Source of the DNA: a virus
Length of the DNA: 64,000 nt
Strand: one strand, 5' to 3'
Virus record (IMG/VR): IMGVR_UViG_3300032294_002706
Location: 1-64,000 of that record
In this document: piece by piece, positions 1 through 61,625 of the stretch
How the letters are laid out: each line of letters opens with the position of its first letter
How positions within the stretch are numbered: position 1 is the stretch's first letter
Notes under the pieces: model-generated
The model's input: the letters and a program-made list of their open reading frames with translations, nothing else
Database searches by the model: none
What the model was told of the DNA's origin: nothing
Program-made: the position numbers and the translations under genes

Positions 1-1439
1 CCTGATGTTCCAGAAGAACCGTCAATTCCGTTGACTCCGCTTGATCCAGAAGAGCCTGAAGTTCCAGAAGAACCTGAAGTTCCACTTGATCCAGAAGAGC
101 CTGAAGTTCCAGAAGAACCTGAAGTTCCACTTGATCCAGAAGAGCCTGAAGTTCCAGAAGTACCTCGAGTTCCACTTGATCCAGAAGAGCCTGAAGTTCC
201 AGAAGTACCTCGAGTTCCACTTGATCCAGAAGAGCCTGAAGTTCCAGAAGTACCTCGAGTTCCACTTGATCCTGAAGATCCTGATGTACCTGATGACCCG
301 CTTGATCCAGAAGTTCCACTTGATCCTGAAGAACCTGATGTACCTGATGATCCACTTGTACCACTTGATCCTGAAGAACCTGATGTTCCAGAAGAACCTG
401 AAGAACCGGCCGGTCCGACTTGAGCAAATGTTGTATGTATGTGTGAATATGAATTTGACGATTGAAAATAAACTTCAGCTTGATGTGAAGATGAGTTTCT
501 ATTTCTAGAGATAACTACGACCAAGAATCTATCATACGCTGAAACATCAATTGGATTTTGAATATACATGTTCAATTGAATCACTTGCGAAGTTGTATGG
601 TCATATAGGTACTGTAAATCTGACCCGTTTGCGACTAGGTTAGTCCAAGCCCCGCCGGATGTACCGCCCAATAGGTAAAATCTTAATCCAATATTGTCAA
701 CATCATTATTAGTATCAGCTTTTGCGTAAATGTTCATTTCCCATATACCTGGAGGTATGATATTCGCAGCAATCGTTGCTGACGGTAAATCACTTTTGTA
801 TATTGCAAACTGAACCAACATATAATCAACTGTGTTGGAGTTATTGGTCGAAAATGTAATGGTTGTTTGGGGGTCAGTCAAATCAGGTAGTATAGCTAAT
901 TGAGATACGTCAGTATTGTTGGTTGGAGAAACCGTTTGTGATGATAAGTTATTGAATGTTGTACCGATTGCAGCATTCAATACTGCATTACTAACTTTCG
1001 CGAGAGCTGGAGAATTATCATCGATATAATTCATGTACAGGACATAACCGCCCGCTCCAGCGCCGTCGGCTCCTGAAGTTCCACTTGATCCTGAACTGCC
1101 AGAAGACCCAGAAGTTCCTGAAGAACCTGAGGTTCCGTCACTTCCATCAACTCCACTTATTCCCGATGTTCCTGATGAGCCTGAAGTACCGGTTGAACCT
1201 GAGCTACCTGATGTACCAGTTGTTCCTGACGAACCGGAAGTACCAGTTGTGCCAGAGCTTCCGCTTGTACCTGACGTGCCTGAAGAACCGGACGTGCCTA
1301 AAGTTCCTGAAGTACCAGTTTGTGGAGAATCATTCCATGAAAGATTTCCATTGGAGTCAATTGCTAGAAATCGGGTCTTAGTATTATCCTGGGTGACCCC
1401 GCTGAGGTCGACTTGTTTTATTTTAATTTTATGAGGCAT
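1..1439 (-). CDS. Gly-Ser/Thr collagen-like repeat protein, putative virion fibre; continues past the left edge (partial)
   Basis: Not in the ORF track because there is no stop in the window. Hand translation from ATG at 1439 gives MPHKIKIKQVDLSGVTQDNTKTRFLAIDSNGNLSWNDSPQTGTSGTLGTSGSSG..., and the same frame still reads G-T-S at position 3. Two G-S/T-S tracts (~1-420, ~1060-1320) flank a globular segment. A late-promoter box lies upstream. Confidence 0.85.
   Translation of the reverse strand, partial: MPHKIKIKQVDLSGVTQDNTKTRFLAIDSNGNLSWNDSPQTGTSGTLGTSGSSGTSGTSGSSGTTGTSGSSGTTGTSGSSGSTGTSGSSGTSGISGVDGSDGTSGSSGTSGSSGSSGSSGTSGADGAGAGGYVLYMNYIDDNSPALAKVSNAVLNAAIGTTFNNLSSQTVSPTNNTDVSQLAILPDLTDPQTTITFSTNNSNTVDYMLVQFAIYKSDLPSATIAANIIPPGIWEMNIYAKADTNNDVDNIGLRFYLLGGTSGGAWTNLVANGSDLQYLYDHTTSQVIQLNMYIQNPIDVSAYDRFLVVVISRNRNSSSHQAEVYFQSSNSYSHIHTTFAQVGPAGSSGSSGTSGSSGSSGTSGSSGTSGSSGSSGTSGSSGSSGTSGSSGSSGTRGTSGTSGSSGSSGTRGTSGTSGSSGSSGTRGTSGTSGSSGSSGTSGSSGTSGSSGSSGTSGSSGTSGSSGSSGVNGIDGSSGTS
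40..264. repeat. 45-bp tandem repeat (5 near-identical copies) within a longer degenerate 9-bp repeat tract encoding (G-S/T-S)n
   Basis: Unit CTTGATCCAGAAGAGCCTGAAGTTCCAGAAGAACCTGAAGTTCCA starts at 40 and 85; a variant with GTACCTCGAG starts at 130, 175 and 220. Confidence 0.9.
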
Positions 1440-1466
1440 TCAACTGGACTTGCATTTTTCTACTAG

Positions 1467-1480
1467 AGTTATTTATCAAC
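1467..1480 (-). promoter_or_regulatory. Putative late promoter (GTTGATAAATAACT)
   Basis: Identical 14-mer also at 4897-4910 and 49967-49980, each upstream of a structural-type gene. Resembles the T4 late promoter TATAAATA; a gp55-like sigma factor is in the window. Confidence 0.75.
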
Positions 1481-1498
1481 CCTAAGCCTAGAAACGAG

Positions 1499-2455
1499 TT
1501 AGCCTCTTTTTTCTCGAGCATATAAAATTGCTTCAACATATTTAGCGGAAGCCGTATCAGGTTTAACAAAACTTAGATCTGCATCAAATGGGCTTGAATC
1601 CCTAAAGTCCGCTTTATAGAATAGCTCAGTAGATCGATCGCCGGTTACTCCAGCATTGTGCATGATGTTACAGCGAGTGTAATCCGAAATTGATGAAGTT
1701 CCCCAGCTAAAATCCAAGTCCGGAGTGACTATTGTTTGAGCTCCCATCTTCCATGCACCCCAAAGAACTGACCACATGTCAGCACACCATTTTTGAACTG
1801 GATTATAGGTTTTCAATTCTTCGGCAGATAAAGTTTTACGTTCCTCATTCTCACGATCTGACATGTACTTGTATAGTAATAATGAGTCTTCCTTGACCTC
1901 TTGCCAGAAATCAGCAGTAACTCCTTTCATTAGATATTGTGCACCTCCTGAGCCTTCCTCGTTCTTATCAACCGTCTCTGGTGGAATTTTTGATAGACTA
2001 CATAGGTCTAGAAAAAGATCATCAGATTTGCTCTTTATGTAGTTCGCACCAATATAGGAAATTGTATCGCTTAGGTACCAATACATATCACTATGCATTG
2101 AATCAAAATCCGGAAGCTGTCTAAAGATAATATCCGAATCATGATAGAAAATAGTTTCACCACGAAGTTCTGGGAATCGTCTAAAGTGTTGTTCTAGAAT
2201 ATCAGGTCTGAGAATTGGAATGTAACCGAAATTATCTTTTACTGTTTTTTCATAGAAAAAAAACCTAACGGTTGGATATTTAGTAGCAAGAGCAAGGCCC
2301 TCGTATGATGGATTACCTGAATAGGCCCAAAGAATTTCAATCCAATTTGGATTAATTCCAAGCTTGATAAAATTATGGATTAGTACTTCAACTTGCCAAT
2401 GAAAGTACGGATGGTCCGGTTGAGCGGACATGAAAATAGTCTTCTTAGTTAACAT
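1499..2455 (-). CDS. GT-A fold glycosyltransferase resembling plant peptidyl-serine O-galactosyltransferase / hydroxyproline O-arabinosyltransferase (GT96/GT95-like)
   Basis: 318 aa; DxD motif (YHDSDIIF). N-terminal YFHWQVEVLIHNF and C-terminal KWCADMWSVLWGA resemble the YFDWQ and W-x-x-EMY blocks of SGT1/HPAT as recalled; late HNAG His motif. Confidence 0.7.
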   Translation of the reverse strand: MLTKKTIFMSAQPDHPYFHWQVEVLIHNFIKLGINPNWIEILWAYSGNPSYEGLALATKYPTVRFFFYEKTVKDNFGYIPILRPDILEQHFRRFPELRGETIFYHDSDIIFRQLPDFDSMHSDMYWYLSDTISYIGANYIKSKSDDLFLDLCSLSKIPPETVDKNEEGSGGAQYLMKGVTADFWQEVKEDSLLLYKYMSDRENEERKTLSAEELKTYNPVQKWCADMWSVLWGAWKMGAQTIVTPDLDFSWGTSSISDYTRCNIMHNAGVTGDRSTELFYKADFRDSSPFDADLSFVKPDTASAKYVEAILYAREKRG

Positions 2456-2460
2456 ACTAA

Positions 2461-2487
2461 ATTATACTAAGAAAGGGGCTGGAGTTT
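2461..2487 (-). promoter_or_regulatory. Putative early/middle promoter AAAC-N16-GTATAAT; possibly a leaderless transcript
   Basis: Minus strand reads AAAC TCCAGCCCCTTTCTTA GTATAAT TTAGT ATG; only 5 nt separate TATAAT from the start codon. Confidence 0.65.
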
Positions 2488-2495
2488 AATCGTTT

Positions 2496-4871
2496 TTATT
2501 GATTTGAGGCTTCGCATGCATCACATGTAATATACGCTCCGTTTATCGGTGGAATCCAGTTGGTAATTGGGTTAGTTGCAACACCTGTCACTGTGTAACA
2601 ACCTGGTGAGTAACCATCGTTCAATCCGCTAAAGTAATACGAGCGGCCTAATATCGGACTAAATCCAGACGTTGCAAAATCAACAGATAGAGTTATTTCA
2701 GGATTTGCACAATTCGCTAGATCAACTTGATCCCCTAATTCAGCGGTCGTCGTAGTAGTCGTTGTATCTCCAAGCACGGTCGTCGTAGTCGTCGTAGGAG
2801 CTGCCGTTGTCGTAGTCGTCGTTGGAGCGATCGTTGTTGTAGTGGTTGTTACTCCATAGCTTGCACAGTTAATTTGAGTAAGAATTTGATTATCGTAATT
2901 AAATTCATAACAGAATTCGCAAACTCCACCGTTTATCACAATTTTAAACTGAATATTTTGAGTTATTCCAGTTACATTGTATGTATCAGGCGTTGAACCA
3001 GCAAAGACCAGGGTATTATCTACCGCAAGTTCGTAAGGAACTCCAGCTGGGCCGGAAATTCCTACTTTTACGTGATCGTAGCTCATAATCGCCGTAGTTA
3101 TTGTAAATAAACTACAGTAATTTGTGGTCGTCGTGGTAGTTGCAGCGGTTGTCGTGGTGGTCGTGGTTGGAGCTACCGTCGTCGTAGTCGTAGTAGGGGT
3201 AGCTATTGTCGTCGTGGTCGTTGTTGGTGCGGCTGTCGTTGTGCTAGTAGTAGATGTGCTAGTAGTCGTTGCAACCGTAGTAGTCGTGGTTGTTGTTGCT
3301 CCAGCTACAACGCTAACTGAGTATTGACAACCGCTCAACGTCGTGAATACATAAGTTCCATATACTGAACTTATTCCAGCGCTCGCGTATTCAGTATCAA
3401 GACGATTGAATATCCATGATAGGCTAATATTTACTCCATGTAATGCAGTTAGATCATAGCTTCCTCCGGCAGTCGGATAGAAAGTTACTGTGTATGGACC
3501 GCTAGGTGTTCCAACGAAGTTTACAATATTTGCATTTATCGCATTAGCAACAATTGAACCAGGAGAACATGTTGTTGTAGTTGTTGTCGGTGCAATGGTC
3601 GTTGTTAAAACTGGAGTTAACGTGGTTGTTGATGTGGTTGTTGTTACAACCAACGGAATCAAAAAGAAAGGACTAAATGATGATACTTGTGCGTATATTT
3701 TTTTGGTTGAATAGTTTGGAGCATAAGGTCCAACTAATACCGTTTCATCAACATAAATTCCACCGACTTCGTGAAATATTCTAACTGCATTAAACGCGGA
3801 AAGGCTTATTGATTGAGGTAGCGTAAATCCAATTATTGCGCCAATCGCCAATGGAGTTGTGATATCGTATGCAAGCAAAGTATTCGTTAAGTAATAACCG
3901 GCAGGCAAGCTTGCACCTGGTGGATTTACGGTAGGTACTGGAACTTGACACACGGTAATTGGTGAACTTGCGGTAACTGCCGTATCTAAAATAGTAGTCA
4001 CGCCATATTGCGGGAACTGCAATGTATCATTCCCAGCAGTTATTATATTGGTTAAGCAACTAATTCCAGCCGCTCCGCAATACGGATCAGCTGATGAATA
4101 TATTAAAGTAACTAGGTCATTTGCATCAAGTCCATAACCAGCAACTGACGTATTCCAATAAAGCTCATCGGTCGAATCGACCAATGAATAATTAGAAGCA
4201 GTTACTCCATTGTCCTTGCTAAAATACGCTGGTGCTAAGTTGTCTCCATTTCCAACGATTATTTGTTGGCCATTCACAAAAAGTAGGTATTCGCTAGTCG
4301 ATAATGGAGCAGGCATTGGTAATAGCCCATCCGACACCAGAGCACCGTCTCCAGTAATAACGTTTGGAACAGCAGATCGTGTGATTGCTGCTCTACATGA
4401 ACCGCCGCCTCCACCTGAAAGTAGAGTCCAACCGGTTGAAACTAAGTATCCGTAAAATCCTTCAACTCTGCCGCTTTGTGCTGTGATGTAAACGATTTCT
4501 CCCGGAATTCCAGTTGGAGGTAAAATTCCATAAACCTTTAGTCTTAATCTTTTTCCCTCTAGTACATCTTCAACAACAACGTTCTTGGCAGTGACTGCTC
4601 CAGTCGGATACAGTTTTATCACTTCCGGATAACTGCCGCCGGCTTGTTGAGCACCGTAAACCGTTAAACCTTGTCTAAGTTTAATCGTGTCCGCTGTGAT
4701 TCCATGAATGTCAACAGTCACGCCAGCCGTCTGGTCGTAGTTTATTGAAGTTAAAAATTCATCGAGTGCTGTCTTTAATGTGTTAAAATTAAGATTAGAC
4801 AGGTCTACTACTGAGCTTAAGCTCGTCCCGTTGATTGATTTTATACTTGAAATTTTTACTTTTACTGACAT
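2496..4871 (-). CDS. Mucin-like Thr-rich putative virion protein
   Basis: 791 aa with three poly-Thr tracts (e.g. TTTTTTVAPTTTTTTTAATTTTTT) separating small Cys-containing beta-rich segments. N-terminal LNFNTL motif resembles that of the neighbouring fibre; late-promoter box upstream. Confidence 0.75.
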   Translation of the reverse strand: MSVKVKISSIKSINGTSLSSVVDLSNLNFNTLKTALDEFLTSINYDQTAGVTVDIHGITADTIKLRQGLTVYGAQQAGGSYPEVIKLYPTGAVTAKNVVVEDVLEGKRLRLKVYGILPPTGIPGEIVYITAQSGRVEGFYGYLVSTGWTLLSGGGGGSCRAAITRSAVPNVITGDGALVSDGLLPMPAPLSTSEYLLFVNGQQIIVGNGDNLAPAYFSKDNGVTASNYSLVDSTDELYWNTSVAGYGLDANDLVTLIYSSADPYCGAAGISCLTNIITAGNDTLQFPQYGVTTILDTAVTASSPITVCQVPVPTVNPPGASLPAGYYLTNTLLAYDITTPLAIGAIIGFTLPQSISLSAFNAVRIFHEVGGIYVDETVLVGPYAPNYSTKKIYAQVSSFSPFFLIPLVVTTTTSTTTLTPVLTTTIAPTTTTTTCSPGSIVANAINANIVNFVGTPSGPYTVTFYPTAGGSYDLTALHGVNISLSWIFNRLDTEYASAGISSVYGTYVFTTLSGCQYSVSVVAGATTTTTTTVATTTSTSTTSTTTAAPTTTTTTIATPTTTTTTVAPTTTTTTTAATTTTTTNYCSLFTITTAIMSYDHVKVGISGPAGVPYELAVDNTLVFAGSTPDTYNVTGITQNIQFKIVINGGVCEFCYEFNYDNQILTQINCASYGVTTTTTTIAPTTTTTTAAPTTTTTTVLGDTTTTTTTAELGDQVDLANCANPEITLSVDFATSGFSPILGRSYYFSGLNDGYSPGCYTVTGVATNPITNWIPPINGAYITCDACEASNQ

Positions 4872-4896
4872 GCAGAGTTACTGTGTTTGGGCTTTT

Positions 4897-4910
4897 AGTT
4901 ATTTATCAAC
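4897..4910 (-). promoter_or_regulatory. Putative late promoter (GTTGATAAATAACT)
   Basis: Exact copy of the 14-mer at 1467-1480, about 25 nt upstream of the ATG at 4871. Confidence 0.75.
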
Positions 4911-4926
4911 TTTGAGTACCCCATCA

Positions 4927-6279
4927 TTATTTTAGGAGTCTCTTACTGCCCTTTGCAGTGCCGGCAATAATCTCTGTTTTATTATCAACTTCTGAGTCTA
5001 GCGCAATTACGCCAGATCTCACAATGCACTCATTTAGATTGGCATAAATGATACTATCCGGAGAACAGTTAATGTAGCTTAAGTCAATTCGGTTTGCGCC
5101 GCCTCTCTCAAATAGGCAATCGTCTAGGTGAGAATATCGGATATCATTATCGGTTAGGATTCGACATTCTGCAATTCTAGAAGATCTAACTTTGCAGCTA
5201 TGTAACATGCAATGAGACAGTTCAGCCTCAATTGAACAATTAATAAAATCTAAATCGTGGAGCGAGAATCCCTCCTTAATGATCGAGTCCTTGACCTGCA
5301 CTCTTTTTGAGTCAGTGTCGTAATTCAATTTGCCCTTTTTCATTTTACCGAAGGTTATTAGGTCAAATAGACTTTCTCTTAAGTTATTATAGTTAGACTC
5401 AACTATTCTAGGATCGTCCTTTAGGTCGATGTAAAGCTCAATATCTGGAAAATTCTTTATGAAATTTTCATAAGTTTTTAGGGCCAACGTATTGTGCCTT
5501 TGTAGCTTAATAACGTCATTGATCTTTTTCTGGTCTTCGATTGAATAGGTGGTATTTGAGGTTAGGGTCTCATATAACTTCTCAGACATGTAATTTATTA
5601 GATTCGTTGCATCAGCTCTACGCGTTTGGTATTCAGGTCCACCGGCATACCTAATCTCAAGATAACCCTCTCTTAACTTTTCAAAGTTTAGGCCAAAGTA
5701 CTTAGATTGAGGAAAGGCAAAGTCCATTGGATTTCCAGGTTTTGCATAAGGTAATGCGTTCTCGGCAACGAATTTATCTTTTGGATAGATGTTACTAACT
5801 GAGTTTTTATAAATTCTCTGAATTCTAGATTTTGCAGTAGGCCACATTTCAAATATCTTTTCCTCGTTAAGAGAAAGGATACACTTGAAAACATTTAGAT
5901 TCTCAAGTCTTTCAGTTAGACCCATATCAAATTCATTAAATGACAAGTTAATGTGAAGTCCAGTACGGTCGGTTGTGAATCCATTCTCATCGATAAAATT
6001 CATCACCTTGTACATGATATGAATTGCTTCAGAATAGGGCATTACTCCAGTTACAAGTTCATTCATTTTGAATCCACCTGAAAAGTCAGCTTCAAGTTTG
6101 AATTGGTCTCTTGACACTGGCAGGTCTGATCGATATTCGTCAGTCCATGTGATATCCTTATTGAGTGCAGTTTTTAATTTCTCTGCAAGCTCTTCTCTTG
6201 GAATCGGCGAAAAAAATTCGAACTCGAATCCTAAGTTAACATTGTCGAAGATTTTTGATTTGGTTAAGTCTTTGTACAT
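4927..6279 (-). CDS. Putative amidoligase (COOH-NH2 ligase / Amidoligase_2-like) with C-terminal beta-helix-like repeat region
   Basis: GFEFE, NELVT, TGLHINLS, KYFGLN and LEIRYAGG motifs in the order typical of phage amidoligase-like proteins; C-terminal Cys/Ile short repeats. Confidence 0.7.
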   Translation of the reverse strand: MYKDLTKSKIFDNVNLGFEFEFFSPIPREELAEKLKTALNKDITWTDEYRSDLPVSRDQFKLEADFSGGFKMNELVTGVMPYSEAIHIMYKVMNFIDENGFTTDRTGLHINLSFNEFDMGLTERLENLNVFKCILSLNEEKIFEMWPTAKSRIQRIYKNSVSNIYPKDKFVAENALPYAKPGNPMDFAFPQSKYFGLNFEKLREGYLEIRYAGGPEYQTRRADATNLINYMSEKLYETLTSNTTYSIEDQKKINDVIKLQRHNTLALKTYENFIKNFPDIELYIDLKDDPRIVESNYNNLRESLFDLITFGKMKKGKLNYDTDSKRVQVKDSIIKEGFSLHDLDFINCSIEAELSHCMLHSCKVRSSRIAECRILTDNDIRYSHLDDCLFERGGANRIDLSYINCSPDSIIYANLNECIVRSGVIALDSEVDNKTEIIAGTAKGSKRLLK

Positions 6280-6283
6280 AATA

Positions 6284-8356
6284 TTATTTGTTTATTGAAA
6301 TGAATGGTACGTTTAATCTTGGTCTAGCATTGTCAATTATTTCAAGCAGAGATTCGTCTCTAACAAAGAGTTGACTCACTATGAATTCATGATCCTCTTC
6401 CTGAACCATTGTGTTGAATAGTCGTATATTTGCAATTGAGTAATTGGCACTAGGTAGGGTCCAATTTTCGGTTGTCTCAAAAGAAAATTGACCAGTCTTC
6501 ACCGAATTTGAATAGACGCTAATTAATCTATTAAAGTTTTTCACGTTTGCCGGATCTTGCCAAAATGAGTAAAAGTTAACTTCAAGTTGACCGTATTGAG
6601 CGGATACTGGAATTATTATTGAATACCACTTGTCATAGTTTAGAGTTCCAACCGGAAATGTGTGATTTGTTCCGTTGATATTAACGTAGGTAGTTACAGT
6701 TGCAGTTAATCCGTCAATGTCAACTAGATTACAGGTAATTGTCATTCCCTTTTCTTGAAAATTATCGAATCCATCGATTAGCTTTATTGATTGGGTGCCT
6801 TTGTTAAATTTGACTAGTGCACTAAAAGTCATGTTTGGAGTATTAACAGTAGATGCAACTGCTTTATAAACTACCGCATTCTCTGACTGCTTGAATTGAA
6901 AAACTCCAGCTGAAAATTCGGTAATGTCTCTACGCTCGCTTGGGTTAAGTCCTAAATTCTTGTAACCTTCAACCGCCACATATTTTCCAGTAGCTGGGTT
7001 ATAGGAATCCTTAGGCCCATTCATTTTAATTGGCAAAAGTTTGCCTGAACTACTTATGGTAGAATCTCCAGTATTCAATTTTCTAGCGGTCCATGCTGTG
7101 TAAATTTCGCTATCTTGATACGCATATAATGTGTAAGGTTGACTAGGCGTGAGCTCCTGATCTGAGCTTGTTCCATTCGATACTACATTATAACTAATAA
7201 TTGCAGGTTTAACTCCACTCATATCATAATAGTACTCAATCAAAGGCGCATAGTTAAATGTGTAATCTAAAATCTTATTGCTTAGATCCGGATGAATTGA
7301 TCTGCGAGTTTCATCGAATTTATGAGATATTGTCTTGTATTGTTTCTTATCAAGAGCGTCCTTCTTTTGAACCTCGGCAGGTTTACCAAATAATTCATCG
7401 CTTGACATGATGATGTTATCTAGGAATCGACGATCCTCAGTTTTCATTAACATATCAATGTTTGGACTGAATTTAGTCAATTGTATTTTCCAATAGAGCG
7501 GCTCCATCATGAATCCTCTAAATAGGTAAGATCCTTGAATCTCGTACATTCTATTGGTTAATGGAAAGTACATGTAGTCTCTTTTGCGAGGCTGTGTATC
7601 CGGTCCAAATATTGACTGAAAGTATATGTGATCAATATGAATCTCAAATGGAATTTCAAAATCAACTCCAAACTCCGTAAAGTTAGGCTTGTTATCTGGA
7701 AAAGTATTATTGGGTACGACGACCTTAACGCATTTGCGATCAGTTGTTTTGAAAAGAGTCCATTCCTTAAATATGAAATCTCCACCGTCTCTATCCGGCT
7801 CAGTTTTAAAGTAGACGACTTCATGTCCAAATAGCTTATTGGTTTGTAGGCTAAGTTCCTTTGCAATACCGATTGCGGTACCAACCTCATACGGCTTGAA
7901 ACTTGCCTCTCTTTCAGCAATAATTGCTGGACATCTTTCGGTTGAACAATAAACGGTTGGCGTGAATAGTGATTCAGCAACGTAAGTACTGTTTAGCCGA
8001 AATTTAACAGAATTGACAGTTAGGGGTGTTGTAATTTGATTATAAGTAGTATCATCATACTCGTACTTTACTTCTAAAAAGACTGGTGCATCTCCGAAAG
8101 TTAGAACAGAAAGTTCGCTTAGATCAGCTGGTGAGAATGGATACCATAGTGACCAATTTCCACGGTCAGAAGAGTATCTCATTTTACGAATGATATTTGA
8201 TGAACTTGCACTACCTAGGTCAAGGTCTTCGTCAAAGCCAACGATATTGAGTGCACCAGGTACAGGTTCTCCAGTAGAAAAAATTCTGTAATTCTTACTG
8301 TAGGTGATGGTGTTTTTCGGAGGCTCCGGAATTACCTTGTAGGTGATTACTTGCAT
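6284..8356 (-). CDS. Neck / head-completion protein (T4 gp14-like core) with extra N- and C-terminal domains
   Basis: FGHEVVYF...FGVD...PRKRDYMYFPLTNRMYEI resembles gp14 (P-x-x-GDLIYFP...FEI). The C-terminus looks like a LamG-like beta-sandwich. Confidence 0.65.
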   Translation of the reverse strand: MQVITYKVIPEPPKNTITYSKNYRIFSTGEPVPGALNIVGFDEDLDLGSASSSNIIRKMRYSSDRGNWSLWYPFSPADLSELSVLTFGDAPVFLEVKYEYDDTTYNQITTPLTVNSVKFRLNSTYVAESLFTPTVYCSTERCPAIIAEREASFKPYEVGTAIGIAKELSLQTNKLFGHEVVYFKTEPDRDGGDFIFKEWTLFKTTDRKCVKVVVPNNTFPDNKPNFTEFGVDFEIPFEIHIDHIYFQSIFGPDTQPRKRDYMYFPLTNRMYEIQGSYLFRGFMMEPLYWKIQLTKFSPNIDMLMKTEDRRFLDNIIMSSDELFGKPAEVQKKDALDKKQYKTISHKFDETRRSIHPDLSNKILDYTFNYAPLIEYYYDMSGVKPAIISYNVVSNGTSSDQELTPSQPYTLYAYQDSEIYTAWTARKLNTGDSTISSSGKLLPIKMNGPKDSYNPATGKYVAVEGYKNLGLNPSERRDITEFSAGVFQFKQSENAVVYKAVASTVNTPNMTFSALVKFNKGTQSIKLIDGFDNFQEKGMTITCNLVDIDGLTATVTTYVNINGTNHTFPVGTLNYDKWYSIIIPVSAQYGQLEVNFYSFWQDPANVKNFNRLISVYSNSVKTGQFSFETTENWTLPSANYSIANIRLFNTMVQEEDHEFIVSQLFVRDESLLEIIDNARPRLNVPFISINK

Positions 8357-8372
8357 TAAAAAAATCCTTTTT

Positions 8373-8385
8373 GTTATTTATCGCA
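8373..8385 (-). promoter_or_regulatory. Putative late promoter (TGCGATAAATAAC)
   Basis: GATAAATAAC core about 16 nt upstream of the neck gene; TGCGATAAATAA recurs at 49909-49920. Confidence 0.65.
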
Positions 8386-8408
8386 GCGGATTCAGGTTTT
8401 AGCCGTCA

Positions 8409-8417
8409 AATAAATAA
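8409..8417 (+). promoter_or_regulatory. Putative late promoter (AATAAATAA), divergent from the box at 8373
   Basis: ATAAATA core about 20 nt upstream of ATG 8437. Confidence 0.45.
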
Positions 8418-8436
8418 TAAGAAAATCGGGGTATCA

Positions 8437-9228
8437 ATGAAACCTTTAAACCCCAAGCTTGTTCTAGACCCAATGTGGCTTTGTCAAGCGAATTTTGTTG
8501 ACTTAGAGTATTACACGTACATTCTCTTGGACGCGAAGCAGAAGTATCTCACTAACTTAGATAGTGACTTTTCCAACTTTTACGAAATAGTTTTCCATTA
8601 CCTAAATTTAAACACTGTAATAGCTGATAAAAAGGTGTACGATTCACATTTGAATGTGGTTAGGTCACACGAAAAGTTAATGGAAATAGTAACTCAATTG
8701 GCCCAGTCGGATGACTCTAATGGGAAGAGTATCGTTAAGGCATGCTCGTCAATCCTGTCTGAGGTAATGGAGTCTTATTTAAAGAAGCAGATTCCTGTAT
8801 TAGAGCATATTCACTTTCATCTAAATAACAATCAAATACACAAGCAAGATGTGATCTATATTGTTAGTAAGTCCACTAAATTGGACAGATATGAAGTTTA
8901 CCGATTAAATCTAAAAAGCAAATGCAATCTAGGTTACTCAATCACAAGAAAGGCAGTATTGGATTTACCGGGTCTAAAGAATTCAGAGTTTAAGGCCAGG
9001 CTGCTTGAGGCAAAGCCTAATTTAAAAGATTTTAATCCTGACCAGAACGTGATAGTTGTTTCAGGCACTGATCATGTTGTGCTATCTGATGGAATTTGTC
9101 TTGCAAAGGACATTATCTTGGTCAATCGCATCATGAAACCAGTCCATGGATTTGACGCTAATGTTCTATTGGATTACAGCCGAATGCTTGAAAAAAAGAA
9201 GGCTATTCCCTTTAAATTAAAGGCTTAA
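8437..9228 (+). CDS. Hypothetical protein (lone plus-strand gene in the structural region)
   Basis: Long ORF filling the gap between two minus-strand genes. ATG 8437 (MKPLNPK) preferred over TTG 8371, which overlaps promoter boxes. Confidence 0.7.
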   Translation: MKPLNPKLVLDPMWLCQANFVDLEYYTYILLDAKQKYLTNLDSDFSNFYEIVFHYLNLNTVIADKKVYDSHLNVVRSHEKLMEIVTQLAQSDDSNGKSIVKACSSILSEVMESYLKKQIPVLEHIHFHLNNNQIHKQDVIYIVSKSTKLDRYEVYRLNLKSKCNLGYSITRKAVLDLPGLKNSEFKARLLEAKPNLKDFNPDQNVIVVSGTDHVVLSDGICLAKDIILVNRIMKPVHGFDANVLLDYSRMLEKKKAIPFKLKA

Positions 9229-12020
9229 GTGGCAGTTTCGTACGTAAAGTGGCATTGAAACTTAATAAGCTTGTCATAATAGTTGCCGTCCGCCGGAGCC
9301 GAAGTTGGAACCCATGATTCGTATAGACAGTCAAGAGCGGTAACTGGACTTAATTTACTAGTACCTGCATTACGACTAGCGAAGCCTGAATTACTAAACG
9401 CATCCACTCCTTTAACATCTCTTTCGCCAAAGAATAGTGCAGCTGGGGAATAGCTTGCTGAACCGCTTGCTGAGCTGTTCTGAACCCTGCCGAGTCTAAT
9501 TTCGGACTTTCCAGTTGGGTTGATTGGTAACGCATTGGCCGTTAGGCCTACAGCGCCAGAGGTTAAAACGGTTCCGCCGGTTACCACACCAGCACTATAA
9601 GTTAGGGGATTCTGATAGAATGCTGGAGACTGTACGACTGGATAAGTTGGGCCTCCGACCACGACCACAATAAGTGGATTCACACTATTGTCTATTTGTA
9701 GATTAAAGCTACCGGCGAGCACAGTGTCGCTAAGACGATCTCCCATTCCGGTGGAAAAGATCGAACCCACTGAACCTCCAGTTGGTTCAAGGTGTGTTCC
9801 AAACGGTAGAGTAAGCCCTATTGCACAGCTATTGAGCCACGTCCCATTTGTAGCATATAAGAAATCACAACGACTTGCATTTGAACCGGCTGCATATACT
9901 GAAGTCGGCGTGTTGGATGCGAATGTTCCAGTATAAGTTGTTGTTATCCAGTTAAATGTGGGGCTAATCGTGAAGTTTACCCAACATGTCACCTTTTTTC
10001 CAATCTTAACGTATCGTGCGTATTCAACTGTGATTGGAATATCACGGTATGTATAGCTTGATCCTGATCCAAGAGGGCCGTACAGTCCTTCTTCTTCAAC
10101 TGTACCGCTTGATGTCCAATATGCTCTAGCTGGATTAGCATAACTAGCTAAGTAACCTGACGTAGTGGTCATAAGTCTCTTAAATGATGGATTTGAGTTT
10201 GTTAGATTTTGTAGGGCTCCACCGTAAAGTGTTGGACTCCATGTGCCTTCTTCGTAATCATCGAGCGTATTTGGATCAGCCGATAGAACTTGAGTTACTG
10301 GGAATGGCAGACCTTGTGCGAGGCGATCCTCTTTTACGACGACTGCATTGTTTAGTGAAATTGTTGCCGCTGCATTTGAGGTTTGAAGTTTAAGGTTACC
10401 GTTAGTTGCGGTAATCGTCCAAGTAACTCCAGTACCGGAGGTATAGTCTATACCGTTTGATTTTATGGTTGAGGTAACGCCAGAACCTAATACAATATTT
10501 TGATTAAAGTTAAAGGTCACTCCACTTGGAGCATCGAAATCAATTGAGTTATTATTCGCTGGATTAAATCCTATTCCAAAGTAATTAACGGCTAAGCCTG
10601 CTCCAAAGCTGATATTTCGTTTAAAGAATAAACCATCAACTGAAACGCCGGCTCCAACTGCAGTAACCTCGGTGTTTGCTAATATGTGCTCGTTCGTCAA
10701 TTTCATTTCAATGGTTCGGCCAACTGACTGCGAAGTACCGGCCTTGTTGATTAACCAACGGTGTTCGCTATTTCTTCGAGGTGAGAATGACTCAGCAACC
10801 TCACTTCCGCTTGAAGAAAGATCATATTCAGCTCGGAGCATATAGTCTCCAGGATTGGCAGTAGTTCCACCACTGATTGTGAATCCGCCTAATCGATACT
10901 TTCTGATTCTTAAGTTTTCAAAGCTTGGACTAATCAAGAAGTTTTGAGAAGTAATTCCATTATAAACAGTAGGTAGAGTATCTAATGAACCTAGTTCAAT
11001 TTGACCTCTATAACCTTTTGATGCTGAATTAGTTTCAAATTCTTTTGCGGCATCCGCTGTGCCGTTAAAGAAAGAGTAAACCGATAAATTTGAAGTTTGT
11101 GGAAATATGCTGTCTACTGAGGCTGGATAAGTTATGAATTTATGAGGAGATCCTGAATTACCTAAACTAGTTAGATCAATTACTGGAGTACCAGCTAAAG
11201 CATAGGCATAGGTTTCACAAAGAGAGAATACTGTTCCACTAGAAGAATACACGTAATATCCTCCATTATTTGTTAATCCGCCGATTGATGTACCGCCCTC
11301 ATTAGAATAGGTTACGAATTGGCCAGTAGTTAAGCCGTGTCCAGCCGAAACAGTTATTTGATTATTAGTCAAACTTACAACCGACGAACTACTTGCATTA
11401 AATGATACTTCGGTTGATGAATTTGCAATCGCTGCAATGTTTGAGGAGACTAATGCTAATGAGCGTGTTTTTAACTCATTGAAATTATAGAGAACTGTTT
11501 GATAATTTGTTCCTAATCCTGGAATTACAAAGTTAGGGTCTCCACTAGTCACGCTATTTGTTAAATCTAATCCTGCTGTAACTCTAGGTTTTACGACTCT
11601 AGAAGAGGCTCCCAATCTAACGTACGGAGAAATATTTGTACCTAGTGCAGTTTGAACTAGCGTATTGAAATCTGTCAATACTTCCCAACCATAGAGATTA
11701 GATCCACTGGTTAATACTTTTTTAAAAACTTTGTCCGCTGTGATTAAAACGTCGCCGGTTCTAATACCAGACGGTGCACCAGATGGTGCGCTTGTGGAGG
11801 CGGTTGCTGGAGTTGTTCCGTAAATAACTGAGCCAGTTTCACCAGTTGGGCCGATTGGGCCGATTGGGCCAGCCGGGCCGATTGGGCCAGTTAGGCCGAT
11901 TGGGCCAGTTGCACCTATGCCGAGTGCAATTAATTGATTAAAGTTGAAGTTTACTTTATTTGAGACATCAACTTGACTATCGGTTGCAAATATCTCCTTT
12001 AAATTTATAATGATTGCCAT
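9225..12020 (-). CDS. Tail fibre / spike-like protein with short collagen segment
   Basis: 931 aa; GPIGPT collagen repeat near the N-terminus; HGLTTGQFVTY...IGGL..YYV module; DPNTLDDYEEGTWSP and YVKIGKKVT motifs common in phage fibre C-termini. Confidence 0.7.
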   Translation of the reverse strand: MAIIINLKEIFATDSQVDVSNKVNFNFNQLIALGIGATGPIGLTGPIGPAGPIGPIGPTGETGSVIYGTTPATASTSAPSGAPSGIRTGDVLITADKVFKKVLTSGSNLYGWEVLTDFNTLVQTALGTNISPYVRLGASSRVVKPRVTAGLDLTNSVTSGDPNFVIPGLGTNYQTVLYNFNELKTRSLALVSSNIAAIANSSTEVSFNASSSSVVSLTNNQITVSAGHGLTTGQFVTYSNEGGTSIGGLTNNGGYYVYSSSGTVFSLCETYAYALAGTPVIDLTSLGNSGSPHKFITYPASVDSIFPQTSNLSVYSFFNGTADAAKEFETNSASKGYRGQIELGSLDTLPTVYNGITSQNFLISPSFENLRIRKYRLGGFTISGGTTANPGDYMLRAEYDLSSSGSEVAESFSPRRNSEHRWLINKAGTSQSVGRTIEMKLTNEHILANTEVTAVGAGVSVDGLFFKRNISFGAGLAVNYFGIGFNPANNNSIDFDAPSGVTFNFNQNIVLGSGVTSTIKSNGIDYTSGTGVTWTITATNGNLKLQTSNAAATISLNNAVVVKEDRLAQGLPFPVTQVLSADPNTLDDYEEGTWSPTLYGGALQNLTNSNPSFKRLMTTTSGYLASYANPARAYWTSSGTVEEEGLYGPLGSGSSYTYRDIPITVEYARYVKIGKKVTCWVNFTISPTFNWITTTYTGTFASNTPTSVYAAGSNASRCDFLYATNGTWLNSCAIGLTLPFGTHLEPTGGSVGSIFSTGMGDRLSDTVLAGSFNLQIDNSVNPLIVVVVGGPTYPVVQSPAFYQNPLTYSAGVVTGGTVLTSGAVGLTANALPINPTGKSEIRLGRVQNSSASGSASYSPAALFFGERDVKGVDAFSNSGFASRNAGTSKLSPVTALDCLYESWVPTSAPADGNYYDKLIKFQCHFTYETAT

Positions 12021-30704: not shown

Positions 30705-32288
30705 GTGAAGCAAACTAAATTTAAGGCAGAAGCCAGACAGCAATTAGCCGCAGGTATTAATGCATTGGCTGAAGCGGTCAAGGTAACTTTAGGCCCAAGA
30801 GGTCGTAATGTTGTTATTGCTCGTGATAACCGTGTTGCAATAACAAAAGATGGAGTAACTGTTGCTCGTGAAGTTCAACTTGAGGACTACATGGAAAACG
30901 TTGGAGCTCAAATGATCAAGCAGGTTGCAAATAAAGTTGCAATGGAAGCCGGCGACGGTACAACCACTGCTACTGTTCTTGCACATGCAATCTTTACCGA
31001 AGGTAACCGATTAATCGAGACAGGCTCTCATCCAATGGATCTTAAAAAAGGAATCGAGCTCGGCATGGAGCATATCATTGCTAATTTAAAAGAACAGGCC
31101 CAAAAGGTTGAGGACTTTGAAAAAATTAGACAAGTTGCAACAATTTCAGCAAATAATGATGAAGAAATTGGATCAATTATTGCTGATGCAATGAAGGCCG
31201 TAGGATTCGATGGAATCATTACTGCTGGTGAAAGTAAGACTGGCGAAACTTTCGTTGAAATCGTTGAGGGTATGCAATTCCAAAATGGCTACTTGTCTCC
31301 ATATTTCATTACTAATCCGGAAAGAAACACGGTTGAGTTCGAGAAACCTTTAATCCTAGTGTATGACGGTAAGATTTCAAATCTATCCGATATGCTACAA
31401 TTCTTAGAGCACTCAAACAAACAAAGACGTCCACTATTAATAATTAGTGATGGAGTCGATGGTGAAGCCCTAAACACTCTACTTGTTAATAAACTACAGG
31501 GCACTTTAAAAGTAGCAGCAGTTAAATCACCAGGATTCGGAGAACAGCGGCGTTTTAAACTACAGGACATTGCTACCTTAACTGGTGGAAAATTAATTTC
31601 TGAACTAGACGGAGTTACTCTTAAAGAGGCAGTTGCCACAGCTTACGTCGGAGGTTGCGATAAAGTTACAATCACATCAGATTCAACCACGCTAATTGGT
31701 GGATTTGGAACAACTGAATCAATTGCTGAATTAACAGATGATCTAAAGTCTCAAATTCAAGCATGTGAGTCTGAAACTACTAAACTCCTGTTAAAGGAAA
31801 GACTTTCTAAATTTGAGGGAGGAGTTGCAATAATTAAAATTGGAGCAACTTCTGAACTTGAAGCTAGAGAAAAATCTGATCGTATCGATGATGCGCTAGG
31901 CGCAACTCGTTCGGCTGTTGCTGAAGGTATTGTTATGGGAGGAGGTCTTGCTCTAGTTAAGGCAGTAAATTCAGTTGAATACGTTTCACCTAACCGCGAT
32001 ATTCAACTAGGCGTAGAACTAATCAAAAAAGCGTGCCACCAGCCGTTCCGTTCTATCTTAGAAAACGCTGGAGTTAATCCGGATATCGTTCTGAGCAAAA
32101 TTAACGAAGGCGCTCCAGGATACAATGCTAAAACTGAGGAATACATTGACATGATCGATAATGGAATTATTGATCCAGTTAAAGTTACTAGAACTGCTCT
32201 AGAGAATGCAGTTTCAATCGCAGGTCTTTTAATCACAACTGACTGCTTAATGGTACAAAAACCCCAAATGAACTCTCAAGTTCAATAA
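30705..32288 (+). CDS. groEL: Chaperonin GroEL
   Basis: VTLGPRGRNV, TKDGVTVA, AGDGTTTATVLA, KSPGFG and GIIDPVKV motifs; lacks the GGM tail. Confidence 0.97.
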   Translation: MKQTKFKAEARQQLAAGINALAEAVKVTLGPRGRNVVIARDNRVAITKDGVTVAREVQLEDYMENVGAQMIKQVANKVAMEAGDGTTTATVLAHAIFTEGNRLIETGSHPMDLKKGIELGMEHIIANLKEQAQKVEDFEKIRQVATISANNDEEIGSIIADAMKAVGFDGIITAGESKTGETFVEIVEGMQFQNGYLSPYFITNPERNTVEFEKPLILVYDGKISNLSDMLQFLEHSNKQRRPLLIISDGVDGEALNTLLVNKLQGTLKVAAVKSPGFGEQRRFKLQDIATLTGGKLISELDGVTLKEAVATAYVGGCDKVTITSDSTTLIGGFGTTESIAELTDDLKSQIQACESETTKLLLKERLSKFEGGVAIIKIGATSELEAREKSDRIDDALGATRSAVAEGIVMGGGLALVKAVNSVEYVSPNRDIQLGVELIKKACHQPFRSILENAGVNPDIVLSKINEGAPGYNAKTEEYIDMIDNGIIDPVKVTRTALENAVSIAGLLITTDCLMVQKPQMNSQVQ

Positions 32289-49700: not shown

Positions 49701-49881
49701 ATACTGTAGTTAATGAACGTAAGTCATTAACTAGTACTACTGAGTTGATAGGTCCCTTTTTGCTAGTTCCTATTACGAGTCTTCCTGTCGATAGAGGCAA
49801 GCTGAGATTAGGGCTTTCGTCGATTTCGACCGTGTAGACACCGCTTGACTTGAATCGGTTCAGATTTAATTTTTCTGCCAT
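46789..49881 (-). CDS. gp18: Contractile tail sheath protein (T4 gp18-like), enlarged
   Basis: N-terminal SSGVYTVEIDES and GTSKKGP; C-terminal AGKRG, SALNNVHVRE, FLFDFND and FDVVFDDSNN; 1030 aa with a large central insertion. Confidence 0.9.
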   Translation of the reverse strand: MAEKLNLNRFKSSGVYTVEIDESPNLSLPLSTGRLVIGTSKKGPINSVVLVNDLRSLTTVYGENDSKLEKNGSFFHRTIEVALRQGPVYALNLLPVADTDVAYFTTFNTESASNNSTWAANLYQDSLSHFYNTQKLWFADVDAVNKYKNIQLGDSFPATGTADRDANKLLSLVNLSKKAVTAWVRVADTTGYDIKVKEYYKLLGDKVEIPEFLHPDDYVADYFVEIAVVEGDWTDYARLSKDPIYAQFFNPSGIELAKMNDFLSLREVSVVNRTIGAMIPDFRDLTGAVASIDALFNRKFSQSGVFCAIDYKKVDMIDLTNATFDSGSSTEPIAEQRIDLVGYGFDELNTTDNTKQLYTVDNGISTVDPVALIDVLSYRKSAGYEYYFALDSVDYNSTYAAGETYTIQKLSGPSNLPTGDKYIVATIGSKLYTAWANGFIKTGDTLHYLAAPSSTPTTLYLSTDGLVKTQSTGQIKYIEFYAYQDAAFQNQVDVKYITDGIASPAPAYLHIKSTTVTQFKADFDLTDSSYFITTGANNYRFFSPNQVVFTLNPSLYGNTAKKEVANTGYTYDSTKRTLVDSFFKVGQWVKAGIVKDTNGDQVIRNRALRIKSVYSQLVTVNYGPSSLPVKTLKYTVTVDTAADSNITGIDITPAVLGGTAGLTVYKGIKNYVTDLRGFYVPAMQVDESGLYPNGTADRQNTILDYMFNDTNIASTLADNETLDYRYIIDSYEGQIWSASKQQLAQLAANHGKALAILNAPSFAQYEKSIDPSFIDVNTNLVSAEYISTGGNLSSNPSYTFNFATGEKNGISIASYAAYFMPNLVIFEGGRNKSIPPAAYVANTYMKKYSSGNTFSIVAGKRGIISEPEITGVEYDLTNDDRDFLEPVGFNLIVRRRGFGVMIFSNNTGYQKVKSALNNVHVREALVTIERDIERILLNFLFDFNDTTTRLRVKTLVKNYLTAVQDARGISTFDVVFDDSNNGTEVLENNAGIIDIIVDFPRGIHKFINRITITRAGGQLASNSTGFTPSF

Positions 49882-61162: not shown

Positions 61163-61625
61163 TTCAGTTAGCACACAGCGTCAACACCTAATAGATGTTA
61201 CCTACATCAAGATGGCCCAAACTTGGTCAGGTCTTTCTCATGCGATCCGTAAAAAAGTTGGAGCCCTAATCGTAAAGAACAATACAATCATTGCTGATGG
61301 GTATAATGGCACTCCTTCCGGTTTTGAAAATGAATGTGAGATTGCAATAAGCCATGAGGATGGTTCATTCAAGGAATATCAAACTAAATGGTACGTTTTA
61401 CATGCAGAATCTAATGCACTTGCAAAGGTTGCCAAATCAACACAAAGTAGCGACGGGGCTACTCTTTATATTACCTACTCTCCATGCACAGATTGCAGCA
61501 AATTAATTTTACAGGCAGGAATCAAGCGAGTTGTGTATTTAGAAGAATACCGAGATATCGCCGGCCTTGACTTCTTAAGAAGAGCTGGCGTTGAAGTTAA
61601 AAAAATCGACCCAGAAACACTATGA
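61152..61625 (+). CDS. dCMP deaminase
   Basis: KVGALIV, GYNGTP, HAESNA and SPCTDC zinc motifs. Confidence 0.93.
   Translation: MSFNSVSTQRQHLIDVTYIKMAQTWSGLSHAIRKKVGALIVKNNTIIADGYNGTPSGFENECEIAISHEDGSFKEYQTKWYVLHAESNALAKVAKSTQSSDGATLYITYSPCTDCSKLILQAGIKRVVYLEEYRDIAGLDFLRRAGVEVKKIDPETL

Follow-up and report, generated by a model that had tools for sequence, protein, structure and literature searches.

A GT-A glycosyltransferase family coupled to oligo-threonine tracts of phage proteins, and a candidate O-glycosylation module in a T4-like jumbo phage

The locus and its genes

This study concerns a putative protein O-glycosylation locus at the start of IMG/VR virus record IMGVR_UViG_3300032294_002706, in which the gene of a 318-amino-acid (aa) glycosyltransferase (GT) stands beside the gene of a 791-aa protein with long oligo-threonine blocks. 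The stretch analysed, hereafter the window, comprises positions 1 to 64,000 of the record (64,000 nucleotides), and its start coincides with the start of the contig. Since the record (G000) is a 129,692-base viral contig with an estimated completeness of 48%, the full genome of the window phage is probably of about 270 kb, in line with the 252-271 kb of contigs carrying close transferase homologues. All five open reading frames (ORFs) in window positions 1-8400 lie on the minus strand:

6284-8356, minus strand: 690-aa neck/head-closure-like protein (T4_neck-protein match of 0.0024, below cut-off; phrog_679, 1.8e-06)
4927-6279, minus strand: 450-aa amidoligase-like protein (borderline Amidoligase_2 match at the N-terminus)
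2496-4871, minus strand: 791-aa mucin-like late protein with oligo-Thr blocks, the proposed acceptor
1499-2455, minus strand: 318-aa GT-A glycosyltransferase, phrog_4417 (fold model, DSD motif, profile match)
3-1439, minus strand: collagen-like protein (Pfam Collagen match), N-terminal 479 aa, cut by the contig end

The last three genes had been singled out in a preliminary description of the sequence as a candidate glycosylation module, and all three were recovered at the same positions on the minus strand, with the features ascribed to them. The 791-aa protein contains 12 runs of at least four Ser/Thr (S/T) residues, mostly T6-7 blocks with x-A-P between them, which form three groups, at residues 410-434, 526-583 and 675-709, flanked by small Cys-containing segments (14 Cys in the whole protein). 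Its residues 1-405 were modelled poorly, being all-beta where modelled, and fold comparison of the model yielded nothing. The Pfam Mucin match was below threshold (26.2 bits against a cut-off of 34.7). The collagen-like ORF shows long uninterrupted Gly-X-Y repeats, as in collagen triple-helix repeat proteins, at residues 42-128 (29 triplets) and 342-479 (46 triplets), with nearly all X and Y positions occupied by Ser or Thr, and matches Pfam Collagen (7.4e-32) as well as tail-fibre PHROGs. The 450-aa amidoligase-like protein, also encoded within the late structural block, shows a faint pentapeptide-repeat signal at its C-terminus and is kept at 33-99% identity in relatives with and without the transferase.

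A transferase family coupled to Ser/Thr tracts

The 318-aa protein matched no Pfam family at E≤0.1 and no NCBIfam model, and aligned with phrog_4417, of unknown function, at an E value of 1.3e-62 (residues 8-311 on profile positions 3-289 of 293). A word-indexed search confirmed 1607 family proteins at E≤0.001 among 2012 candidates, and an exhaustive search gave 849 cluster representatives at the same threshold; every name among the 120 family matches listed was 'hypothetical protein'. The family is present in phages of Enterococcus, Staphylococcus, Lactobacillus, Lactococcus and Clostridium. The YFHWQ, DSD and WCADMW blocks noted previously do exist in the protein. Across 46 homologues, 34-95% identical to the window protein, residues W20, D106, D108, M227 and H266 are invariant, and Q21, Q221, W223, W228 and W232 are conserved in at least 90% of the sequences.

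An AlphaFold2 model built with these 46 homologues (predicted local distance difference test, pLDDT, 97.2; predicted template modelling score, 0.93) is a single compact, Rossmann-like alpha/beta/alpha GT-A domain of alternating strands and helices, with 310 of the 318 residues at a pLDDT of at least 90. The model and the invariant D106 and D108 agree with the earlier assignment of the protein as a DxD glycosyltransferase. Foldseek against the PDB returned WbbM, UGGT, XXYLT1, the Skp1 alpha-galactosyltransferase, LARGE1, LgtC and glycogenin at E values of 3e-7 to 5e-5 and template modelling (TM) scores of 0.4-0.5. The fold comparison scored glycogenin at 14.9, Skp1 alpha-galactosyltransferase at 14.5, UGGT at 14.3, LgtC at 13.9, WbbM at 13.6, LARGE1 at 13.3, GlyE at 12.8, PBCV-1 A64R at 10.5 and TarP at 9.3. 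As judged from the model, the nearest solved folds are retaining GT8/GT24-type enzymes. The DxD motif and a conserved His are common to the window enzyme and to glycogenin, LgtC, the UGGT catalytic domain, the Skp1 alpha-galactosyltransferase Gat1 and GlyE, and D106, D108 and H266 may form the metal site, as in GT8 enzymes. On the other hand, sequence identity to these enzymes is only 6-12%, and no member among the 46 matched the Pfam GT8 or GT24 models at E values up to 10. Searching solved structures with the 318-aa sequence gave a best E value of 0.4 and no usable relative. The sole match of the family profile among solved structures, to TAL-effector repeats, concerned one short repeated segment and was judged spurious.

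A likeness to the plant enzymes HPAT (GT95) and SGT1 (GT96), whose task of attaching the first sugar to hydroxy-amino acids in repetitive structural proteins would be shared by the window enzyme, had also been put forward. It retains some basis for GT95, as in a feature search of the ESM Atlas the nearest named clusters (score 0.96) carry PF23452 in 10% and 58% of their members. HMMER gave no link and the nearest folds are of the GT8/GT24 type: PF23452 (cut-off 23.9 bits) had no match at E≤10 in the window protein, in the whole record or in 14 control genomes, and one of the 46 relatives matched it at E=0.23. The GT95/96 resemblance is only a lead.

Many family members are fusions: 91 of the 150 representatives listed are at least 450 aa long. 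Ten fusions were scanned, three of which carried an extra GT domain above the Pfam cut-off (two GT2, one of them also with a DXD sugar-binding region, and one GT6), two gave sub-threshold matches (methyltransferase and GT25) and five had no match. When homologues of the fusion partners of the 91 long members were sought among the ORFs of the record, the transferase domain alone matched.

The gene neighbourhood of the family was surveyed in 84 viral loci, comprising the best 80 IMG/VR loci of 597 confirmed among 600 candidate stretches and 4 annotated phages; ORFs were called mechanically and the longest consecutive S/T run was measured in each neighbour. An upstream gene was present in 81 loci, and a run of at least seven residues was found in the gene immediately upstream (position -1) in 61 of them and at positions -1 to -3 in 64. 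Single-linkage clustering of the transferase at 70% identity reduced the set to 28 clusters, with such a run at -1 to -3 in 22 (at -1 in 19) and within three genes downstream in 2. The background, taken as ORFs of at least 100 aa lying more than three genes from the transferase, contained such runs in 8 of 444 ORFs. Because 83 partner proteins, once their tracts were masked, still formed at least 11 BLAST homology groups, the association is with the tract and not with one protein family. Two of the partners are annotated as tail-tube proteins and have a terminal poly-Thr tail (gp50 of phiFL1A, ...GTTTTTSTTTTTTSSTTTTTTTQASSK; gp18 of phiCTP1, ...EETTTTTNAPITTTTTTV), and in both phages the transferase gene comes directly after the tail-tube gene and before the tape-measure gene. 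Chryseobacterium phage MA9V-3 has S/T runs of 21 at -1 and 41 at -3; VPE25 and phiCTP1, with runs of 6 only, miss the threshold of seven. In one cluster none of 12 loci had an adjacent tract. This cluster is not a real exception, since its member G015 (100% complete, 67 kb), with the transferase at 13.8 kb, encodes four poly-Thr proteins elsewhere: one of 725 aa (18 S/T runs of at least four, mostly poly-Thr), one of 1363 aa and two small ones with terminal T5-6-A-A-P repeats. The expected co-occurrence of the family with S/T-rich genes was thus observed across lineages, and these comparative data link the transferase family to poly-S/T tracts in structural proteins of phages, not to DNA genes.

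The same analysis was carried out in prokaryotic genomes, on the best 80 of 125 loci confirmed among 134 candidate stretches, with transferases of at most 400 aa classed as stand-alone. Among 30 stand-alone loci with an upstream gene, a run of at least seven was found at -1 in 17 and at -1 to -3 in 18, as compared with 2 and 3, respectively, among 49 loci of the fused form; the background was 16 of 475 ORFs. Bacillota prophages make up many of the stand-alone cases, and their partner has about 205-215 aa, the size of a tail-tube protein. Fused forms occur in chromosomes of Chitinophaga, Pedobacter, Sphingobacterium and Mucilaginibacter. A FastTree phylogeny of 109 transferase domains was divided into two halves with local support of 99 each, one of 52 rows (48 fused and 4 stand-alone bacterial forms) and the other of 57 rows, 56 of them stand-alone, with an adjacent tract in 41 of the 57. 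The window enzyme belongs to the second half, in a clade of 9 rows of which 8 have the tract.

In two fused-form loci the neighbours include a radical-SAM enzyme, a LanC-like protein, a thioredoxin-like protein and a 728-aa C39-peptidase/ABC exporter, as well as a weak GT1 match under its cut-off. A leader profile derived from three small ORFs detected double-glycine-leader ORFs in 22 loci at E<0.05, whose cores are Cys-rich, usually with an S/T-rich stretch first and in some cases with poly-Thr. Four leader ORFs were compared with NCBIfam: one passed TIGR04149 (27.5 against 25 bits), another the pinensin leader model (38.9 against 24 bits), and the remaining two matched TIGR04149 below threshold. 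Since the sister half of the tree thus sits in clusters of peptides that are made by ribosomes and modified after translation (RiPPs), peptide acceptors are plausible for the whole family, and the position of both branches beside peptide or protein substrates provides circumstantial support for a peptide-acting family. Known glycocin enzymes are described as GT2-type; the transferase domain, in contrast, has no GT2 Pfam match, and the window enzyme belongs to the stand-alone phage branch and not to the RiPP branch. With the glycocin systems (SunS/GccA/ThgS), the sister branch shares a genetic logic of double-glycine-leader, Cys-rich precursors and C39-ABC exporters. Loci L199, L220, L224, L235, L251 and 17 others encode candidate glycosylated RiPPs of Bacteroidota.

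Relatives of the window phage were collected with the 450-aa amidoligase-like gene as anchor (best 80 of 129 confirmed among 214 candidate stretches, with at least 6 kb downstream required). In these loci, which represent few lineages, the tract was present in 17 and absent in 0 of those with the transferase, and present in 0 and absent in 16 of those without it. When whole records were searched with the family profile, the enzyme was detected in none of the 5 transferase-less records (33-85% complete) and, in one copy each, in all 5 positive controls. A 1343-aa protein of phages without the transferase aligns over some 1340 residues, at 45-50% identity, with the partner proteins of L019 (1795 aa) and L026 (1680 aa). 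In these two longer proteins the S/T tracts, which start at residues 1403 and 1482, lie only in a C-terminal extension absent from the 1343-aa protein. The most telling single case is L135, whose anchor is 55% identical, as near as that of several transferase-bearing loci, and which has neither enzyme nor tract. Runs of five or more Thr (T5+) in open frames of at least 100 aa were distributed as follows, with none in the 321.8 kb of the two transferase-less records together:

G000, transferase present: 10, all in the 791-aa protein
G015, transferase present: 23, in 4 frames
G004 (230 kb), transferase absent: 0
G002 (91 kb), transferase absent: 0

A collagen-like protein with 52-727 uninterrupted triplets and with Ser or Thr at 70-100% of the X and Y positions was found in 17 of 17 transferase-bearing anchored loci and in 0 of 16 transferase-less ones (one lineage). 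This distribution fits a block of poly-Thr, transferase and collagen-like genes that is gained or lost together. Among the 84 viral loci, Gly-X-Y repeats outside close relatives were limited to 11 triplets in L035, so the link between transferase and collagen is lineage-specific and not family-wide. The proposal that the collagen-like protein is glycosylated, with stabilisation of a Pro-free helix, found nothing in its favour beyond adjacency, the co-occurrence being confined to this phage lineage. O-glycosylated Thr can stabilise a collagen helix, as in the cuticle collagen of Riftia; the collagen-like protein is a possible second acceptor, and such stabilisation in this phage is speculation. 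The giant collagen-like proteins of relatives (loci L125, L128, L106, L015 and others) reach 727 uninterrupted triplets and are almost devoid of Pro.

Predicted function and rival explanations

On this comparative basis we consider it probable that the transferase O-glycosylates the oligo-Thr tracts of the upstream 791-aa late protein; the location of its gene within the late structural block, 40 nt after the poly-Thr gene, also counts for this reading. In the proposed mechanism, a soluble, metal-dependent GT-A enzyme would move a sugar from a nucleotide sugar to Thr hydroxyls of T5-8 blocks with x-A-P spacers, Thr being the presumed acceptor residue, in the infected cell before or during assembly. 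The linkage would be alpha, since the nearest folds are retaining enzymes. On the virion, the linkers of the 791-aa protein would thereby become glycosylated stalks of a mucin-like kind; the Ser/Thr collagen-like proteins encoded nearby may serve as further acceptors, and amino-deoxy-sugar genes of the phage, together with a second, GT2-type enzyme, might supply and extend the glycan. The corresponding genes lie in the record outside the window:

G000 71478-73514: 678-aa GT2-domain protein
G000 74209-74832: FkbM-type methyltransferase
G000 89185-90480: DegT/DnrJ/EryC1 aminotransferase
G000 90477-91748: RmlD-like reductase fused to DUF3431
G000 105500-106393: 4,6-dehydratase/epimerase, directly after the portal gene

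The transferase-less record G004 (85% complete) shares the anchor, neck, portal, sheath and dCMP-deaminase genes with the window phage. Because the 318-aa enzyme, the poly-Thr protein, the hydroxymethylase homologue described below and the GT2, FkbM, RmlD-DUF3431 and epimerase genes are all missing from this record, which has a single 24%-identical DegT-like match, the sugar toolkit travels with the transferase module; it may serve the protein glycan, a DNA glycan or both. The toolkit regions of G000 span 71478-76480, 87599-91748 and 105500-106393.

Several observations weigh against Thr-tract glycosylation as the function of the enzyme. All of the support is comparative, the sugar on these proteins being a prediction, and the placement of the 791-aa protein in the virion comes from gene position and motif. 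Six of the 28 viral clusters have no adjacent run of at least seven, and one genome of this kind (G015) was read fully; 12 of the 30 stand-alone loci in prokaryotic genomes also have no such run. The 17 to 16 distribution among anchored loci derives from few lineages that are not phylogenetically independent, with L135 as the one informative closer relative, and Ser-rich runs of at least seven do occur without the enzyme, two in G002 (320- and 500-aa frames) and two in G004 (short frames). Furthermore, the window encodes a cytosine-type hydroxymethylase homologue with an adjoining dCMP deaminase, and putative homologues of this gene co-vary with the transferase within the lineage. Finally, initiation on Thr and extension of a sugar placed by another enzyme would look alike in sequence.

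The last two points correspond to distinct explanations. The hydroxymethylase-like ORF (60269-61162, plus strand) matches the Pfam thymidylate synthase (TS) family at 8.2e-21 and has the same label in PHROGs. Against solved structures, it matched the CMP hydroxymethylase MilA at 6.3e-20 and the T4 dCMP hydroxymethylase at 1.9e-14, and true thymidylate synthases at 2.5e-10 or weaker. It has an Asp aligned with D179 of the T4 enzyme, a position that is Asn in thymidylate synthases and sets cytosine specificity. Because of this match, the cytosine-specifying Asp and the dCMP deaminase gene directly after it (61152-61625, plus strand), the phage DNA probably contains modified cytosine, either 5-hydroxymethyl- or 5-methyl-cytosine. 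Among close transferase-bearing relatives, G006 and G009 carry a strong ThyA together with a weak TS-family gene that falls in the size and score class of ORF 60269-61162, and G008 carries the weak gene alone; taking the weak gene to be the homologue of this ORF, it is present in 3 of 3 such relatives and in 0 of 5 transferase-less records. The comparison of relatives with and without the enzyme, in effect a knock-out comparison, cannot separate a DNA role in this lineage because the hydroxymethylase co-varies with the transferase.

The transferase could, then, glycosylate modified cytosine of the phage DNA in the manner of the T4 glucosyltransferases, its adjacency to the poly-Thr gene being incidental. 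This alternative, raised in the preliminary description, deserves more weight than before in view of the encoded hydroxymethylase homologue; the phage also makes its own nucleotide sugars, and GT-A enzymes that glycosylate 5-hydroxymethylcytosine (5hmC) are known (bioRxiv 10.1101/2023.12.21.572611). We nevertheless regard it as quite unlikely, since members of the family are also found in phages that lack any TS-family gene (phiCTP1, phiFL1A, the complete G015 and the incomplete G011, G013 and G014) or with only a strong, true ThyA (MA9V-3, G010 and G012). In addition, the transferase gene lies about 58 kb from the hydroxymethylase-like gene, inside the late structural block, whereas the DNA-glycosylation genes described in that preprint cluster with base-modifying enzymes. 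The alpha- and beta-glucosyltransferases of T4 are GT-B enzymes, and the window enzyme is GT-A, like one published class; the members of that class acting on 5hmC are, in the same source, JGT/TarP/A64R-like enzymes with a DDD motif. The window enzyme has DSD instead of DDD, is encoded far from the base-modifying gene, and thus shows neither the fold and motif (GT-B, or JGT/TarP-like GT-A with DDD) nor the clustering of DNA glycosyltransferases. A role on DNA would moreover fail to explain why poly-S/T tracts accompany the family in at least 11 groups of partner proteins.

It is also conceivable, and in our opinion unlikely, that the transferase extends a sugar placed on Thr by another enzyme of the host or the phage, such as the 678-aa GT2-type protein. 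UGGT, XXYLT1, the Skp1 alpha-galactosyltransferase and LARGE1, all among the nearest folds, act on protein-bound glycans and not on the peptide itself; the record codes for a second glycosyltransferase and a methyltransferase; and, as described above, long fusions are frequent in the family, some of them (3 of 10 scanned) with a further GT domain. In these fusions, however, it is the transferase domain that is conserved and the partner that varies, and this domain is the constant element travelling with the tracts. In the 12.9-kb stretches read of phiFL1A and phiCTP1, both small and temperate, it is encoded by the single such gene, beside the tagged tail-tube gene, and glycogenin- and GlyE-type relatives act at or near the protein, GlyE belonging to the pathway of the pneumococcal serine-rich-repeat protein. 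A third reading would have the enzyme modify a glycan of the host envelope (O-antigen, capsule or a teichoic-acid-like polymer), for instance to block superinfection, with the tracts as flexible linkers. The presence of WbbM and LgtC, builders of lipopolysaccharide glycans, among the nearest folds speaks for it; we consider it very improbable, as the gene lies in late structural modules beside tail-tube or fibre genes in very different phages, the predicted structure is one compact high-confidence domain, and the loss of tracts in relatives without the gene would be left unexplained.

Glycosylation of the 791-aa protein by the window enzyme would have a counterpart in mycobacteriophages. According to papers citing Freeman et al. 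(2023, Cell Host Microbe), virion glycosylation was demonstrated experimentally in phages Che8, Corndog and Myrna, whose own glycosyltransferases (Che8 gp108-110, Corndog gp38 and that of Myrna) coat capsid and tail-tube proteins, as proposed here, with glycans that shield the particles from antibodies. As far as the literature found extends, virion glycosylation has been established by experiment only in these phages. The present system differs in its hosts, which are Bacteroidota and Bacillota, in its apparent acceptor signal, a portable oligo-Thr tag or linker, and in being known from sequence alone. Alignment by hhalign of the 46-sequence family profile with Che8 gp108, gp109 and gp110 gave probabilities of 0.02%, 0.05% and 0.28%, respectively, and no mycobacteriophage appeared among the 10 tallied first words of organism names for the 77 phage records matched. 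The locus is most likely a different case, namely phage virion glycosylation through another enzyme family and a portable Thr tag. In the literature searched, which covered few subscription journals, no description was found of the transferase family, of poly-Thr tags on phage proteins or of the RiPP-side transferase.

A wider reading, which we put forward only tentatively, is that short oligo-Thr tags (T5-8-x-A-P) serve as a portable glycosylation signal for a widespread family of peptide O-glycosyltransferases. In phages of Bacteroidota and Bacillota, capsid, tail-tube and fibre proteins would be tagged in this way to give sugar-coated virions, jumbo phages would add mucin-like stalks, giant Pro-free collagen fibres and a sugar pathway of their own, and the sister branch would tailor RiPPs, the whole perhaps being a viral and prokaryotic counterpart of plant HPAT-type enzymes. 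To this picture the window adds a T4-like jumbo phage with internal mucin-like linkers instead of terminal tags, together with a giant Ser/Thr collagen block, a phage-encoded amino-deoxy-sugar pathway, a hydroxymethylase homologue and the RiPP-associated sister branch. If the reading is correct, glycan coats would be a common feature of Bacillota and Bacteroidota phages, those of Enterococcus, Staphylococcus, Lactobacillus, Lactococcus and Clostridium included, with a bearing on the pharmacology of phage therapy, mucus adhesion and host recognition, and the pair of tag and enzyme would constitute a compact tool for site-directed O-glycosylation in bacteria. It also offers a testable explanation for the presence of a mucin-like protein and giant Ser/Thr collagen-like proteins in a phage of about 270 kb, and for Bacteroidota a class of glycosylated RiPPs would be suggested by the sister branch.

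Promoter-like motifs and other features of the record

Both neighbours of the transferase gene had been described as lying under an identical late-promoter 14-mer. The copies of this 14-mer, GTTGATAAATAACT, are indeed exact, and the window contains exactly three of them, all on the minus strand:

1467-1480, minus strand: starts about 40 nt upstream of the start codon of the collagen-like gene
4897-4910, minus strand: upstream of the poly-Thr gene, with the ATAAATAA core 35 nt from the start codon
49967-49980, minus strand: upstream of the sheath ORF 46789-49881

When up to two mismatches were allowed the count was 4, not above that of shuffled sequences (mean 1.72; 12 of 100 shuffles reached 4), so that the signal lies in the three exact copies and their placement. 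The ATAAATAA core, which resembles the T4 late promoter consensus, is found 12-72 nt (mostly 25-35) upstream of 20 of 121 ORFs of the record, and these 20 account for 23 of its 43 occurrences on both strands. They include other structural genes, namely those of the neck-like and sheath proteins and two further large tail-region ORFs, as well as the GT2 protein.

The transferase gene, for which a promoter of another class had been suggested, with the enzyme made in advance, has no ATAAATAA core upstream. The candidate for a separate promoter is the following hexamer:

2461-2466, minus strand: TATAAT, ending 5 nt before the ATG of the transferase gene

Of 127 ORFs, 10 have an exact TATAAT copy in the 70 nt upstream, including GroEL, the ORF preceding DegT and the epimerase, as compared with about 3 expected by calculation from the 90 copies genome-wide. 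A consensus promoter scan detected no -35 partner and no site upstream of the transferase gene, and its sigma-70-like sites were fewer than in shuffled sequences (14 against a mean of 23.5). A second promoter class, shared with sugar genes and distinct from the late-type core, is possible; read-through from the late promoter into the transferase gene is equally possible, because the gap behind the poly-Thr gene is of 40 nt and no terminator was detected in it. The role of the 14-mer and of TATAAT as working promoters is our interpretation of motif placement. Other ORF starts of G000 with TATAAT are 30705, 36804, 87599, 105500, 109529, 113258, 115104 and 126710; the hexamer often takes the form AGTATAAT and precedes the transferase gene, GroEL, two genes of sugar pathways and several small ORFs by 5-30 nt.

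Megablast of window positions 1-12000 against the phage collection returned zero matches. The closest transferase homologue in an isolate is that of Chryseobacterium phage MA9V-3 (41% identity), and among prokaryotic assemblies the closest match (77%) comes from a 254-kb contig that had been binned into the metagenome-assembled genome of an uncultured Bacteroidetes member; from these nearest homologues, the host of the window phage is likely a member of the Bacteroidota. T4-like genes of the window encode gp32-like, UvsX/RecA-like, DnaB-like and gp46/47-like proteins and a PolB fragment, in addition to GroEL and ribonucleotide reductase genes. The sheath ORF (46789-49881) encodes 1030 aa, with a sheath C-terminal domain just under the Pfam cut-off (25.4 against 26.9 bits). 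Genes for a gp23-like capsid protein, a gp20-like portal and a prohead protease are located in the second half of the record.

The GroEL-type chaperonin is encoded at 30705-32288 on the plus strand of the window (phrog_5725, 2.3e-159). The family-B DNA polymerase is apparently split over at least two ORFs, one at 50545-51918 on the plus strand and another PolB piece beyond the window. In the related complete genome G006 (271 kb), the ThyA at C1:141067-142212 aligns with the Pfam model as three separate pieces of a single 392-aa open frame, which suggests inserted segments. Between 64 and 130 kb, G000 further encodes a TnsA-like endonuclease domain, a tyrosine integrase-family protein, a ClpB-like AAA+ protein, two GIY-YIG endonucleases and a DnaJ-domain protein.

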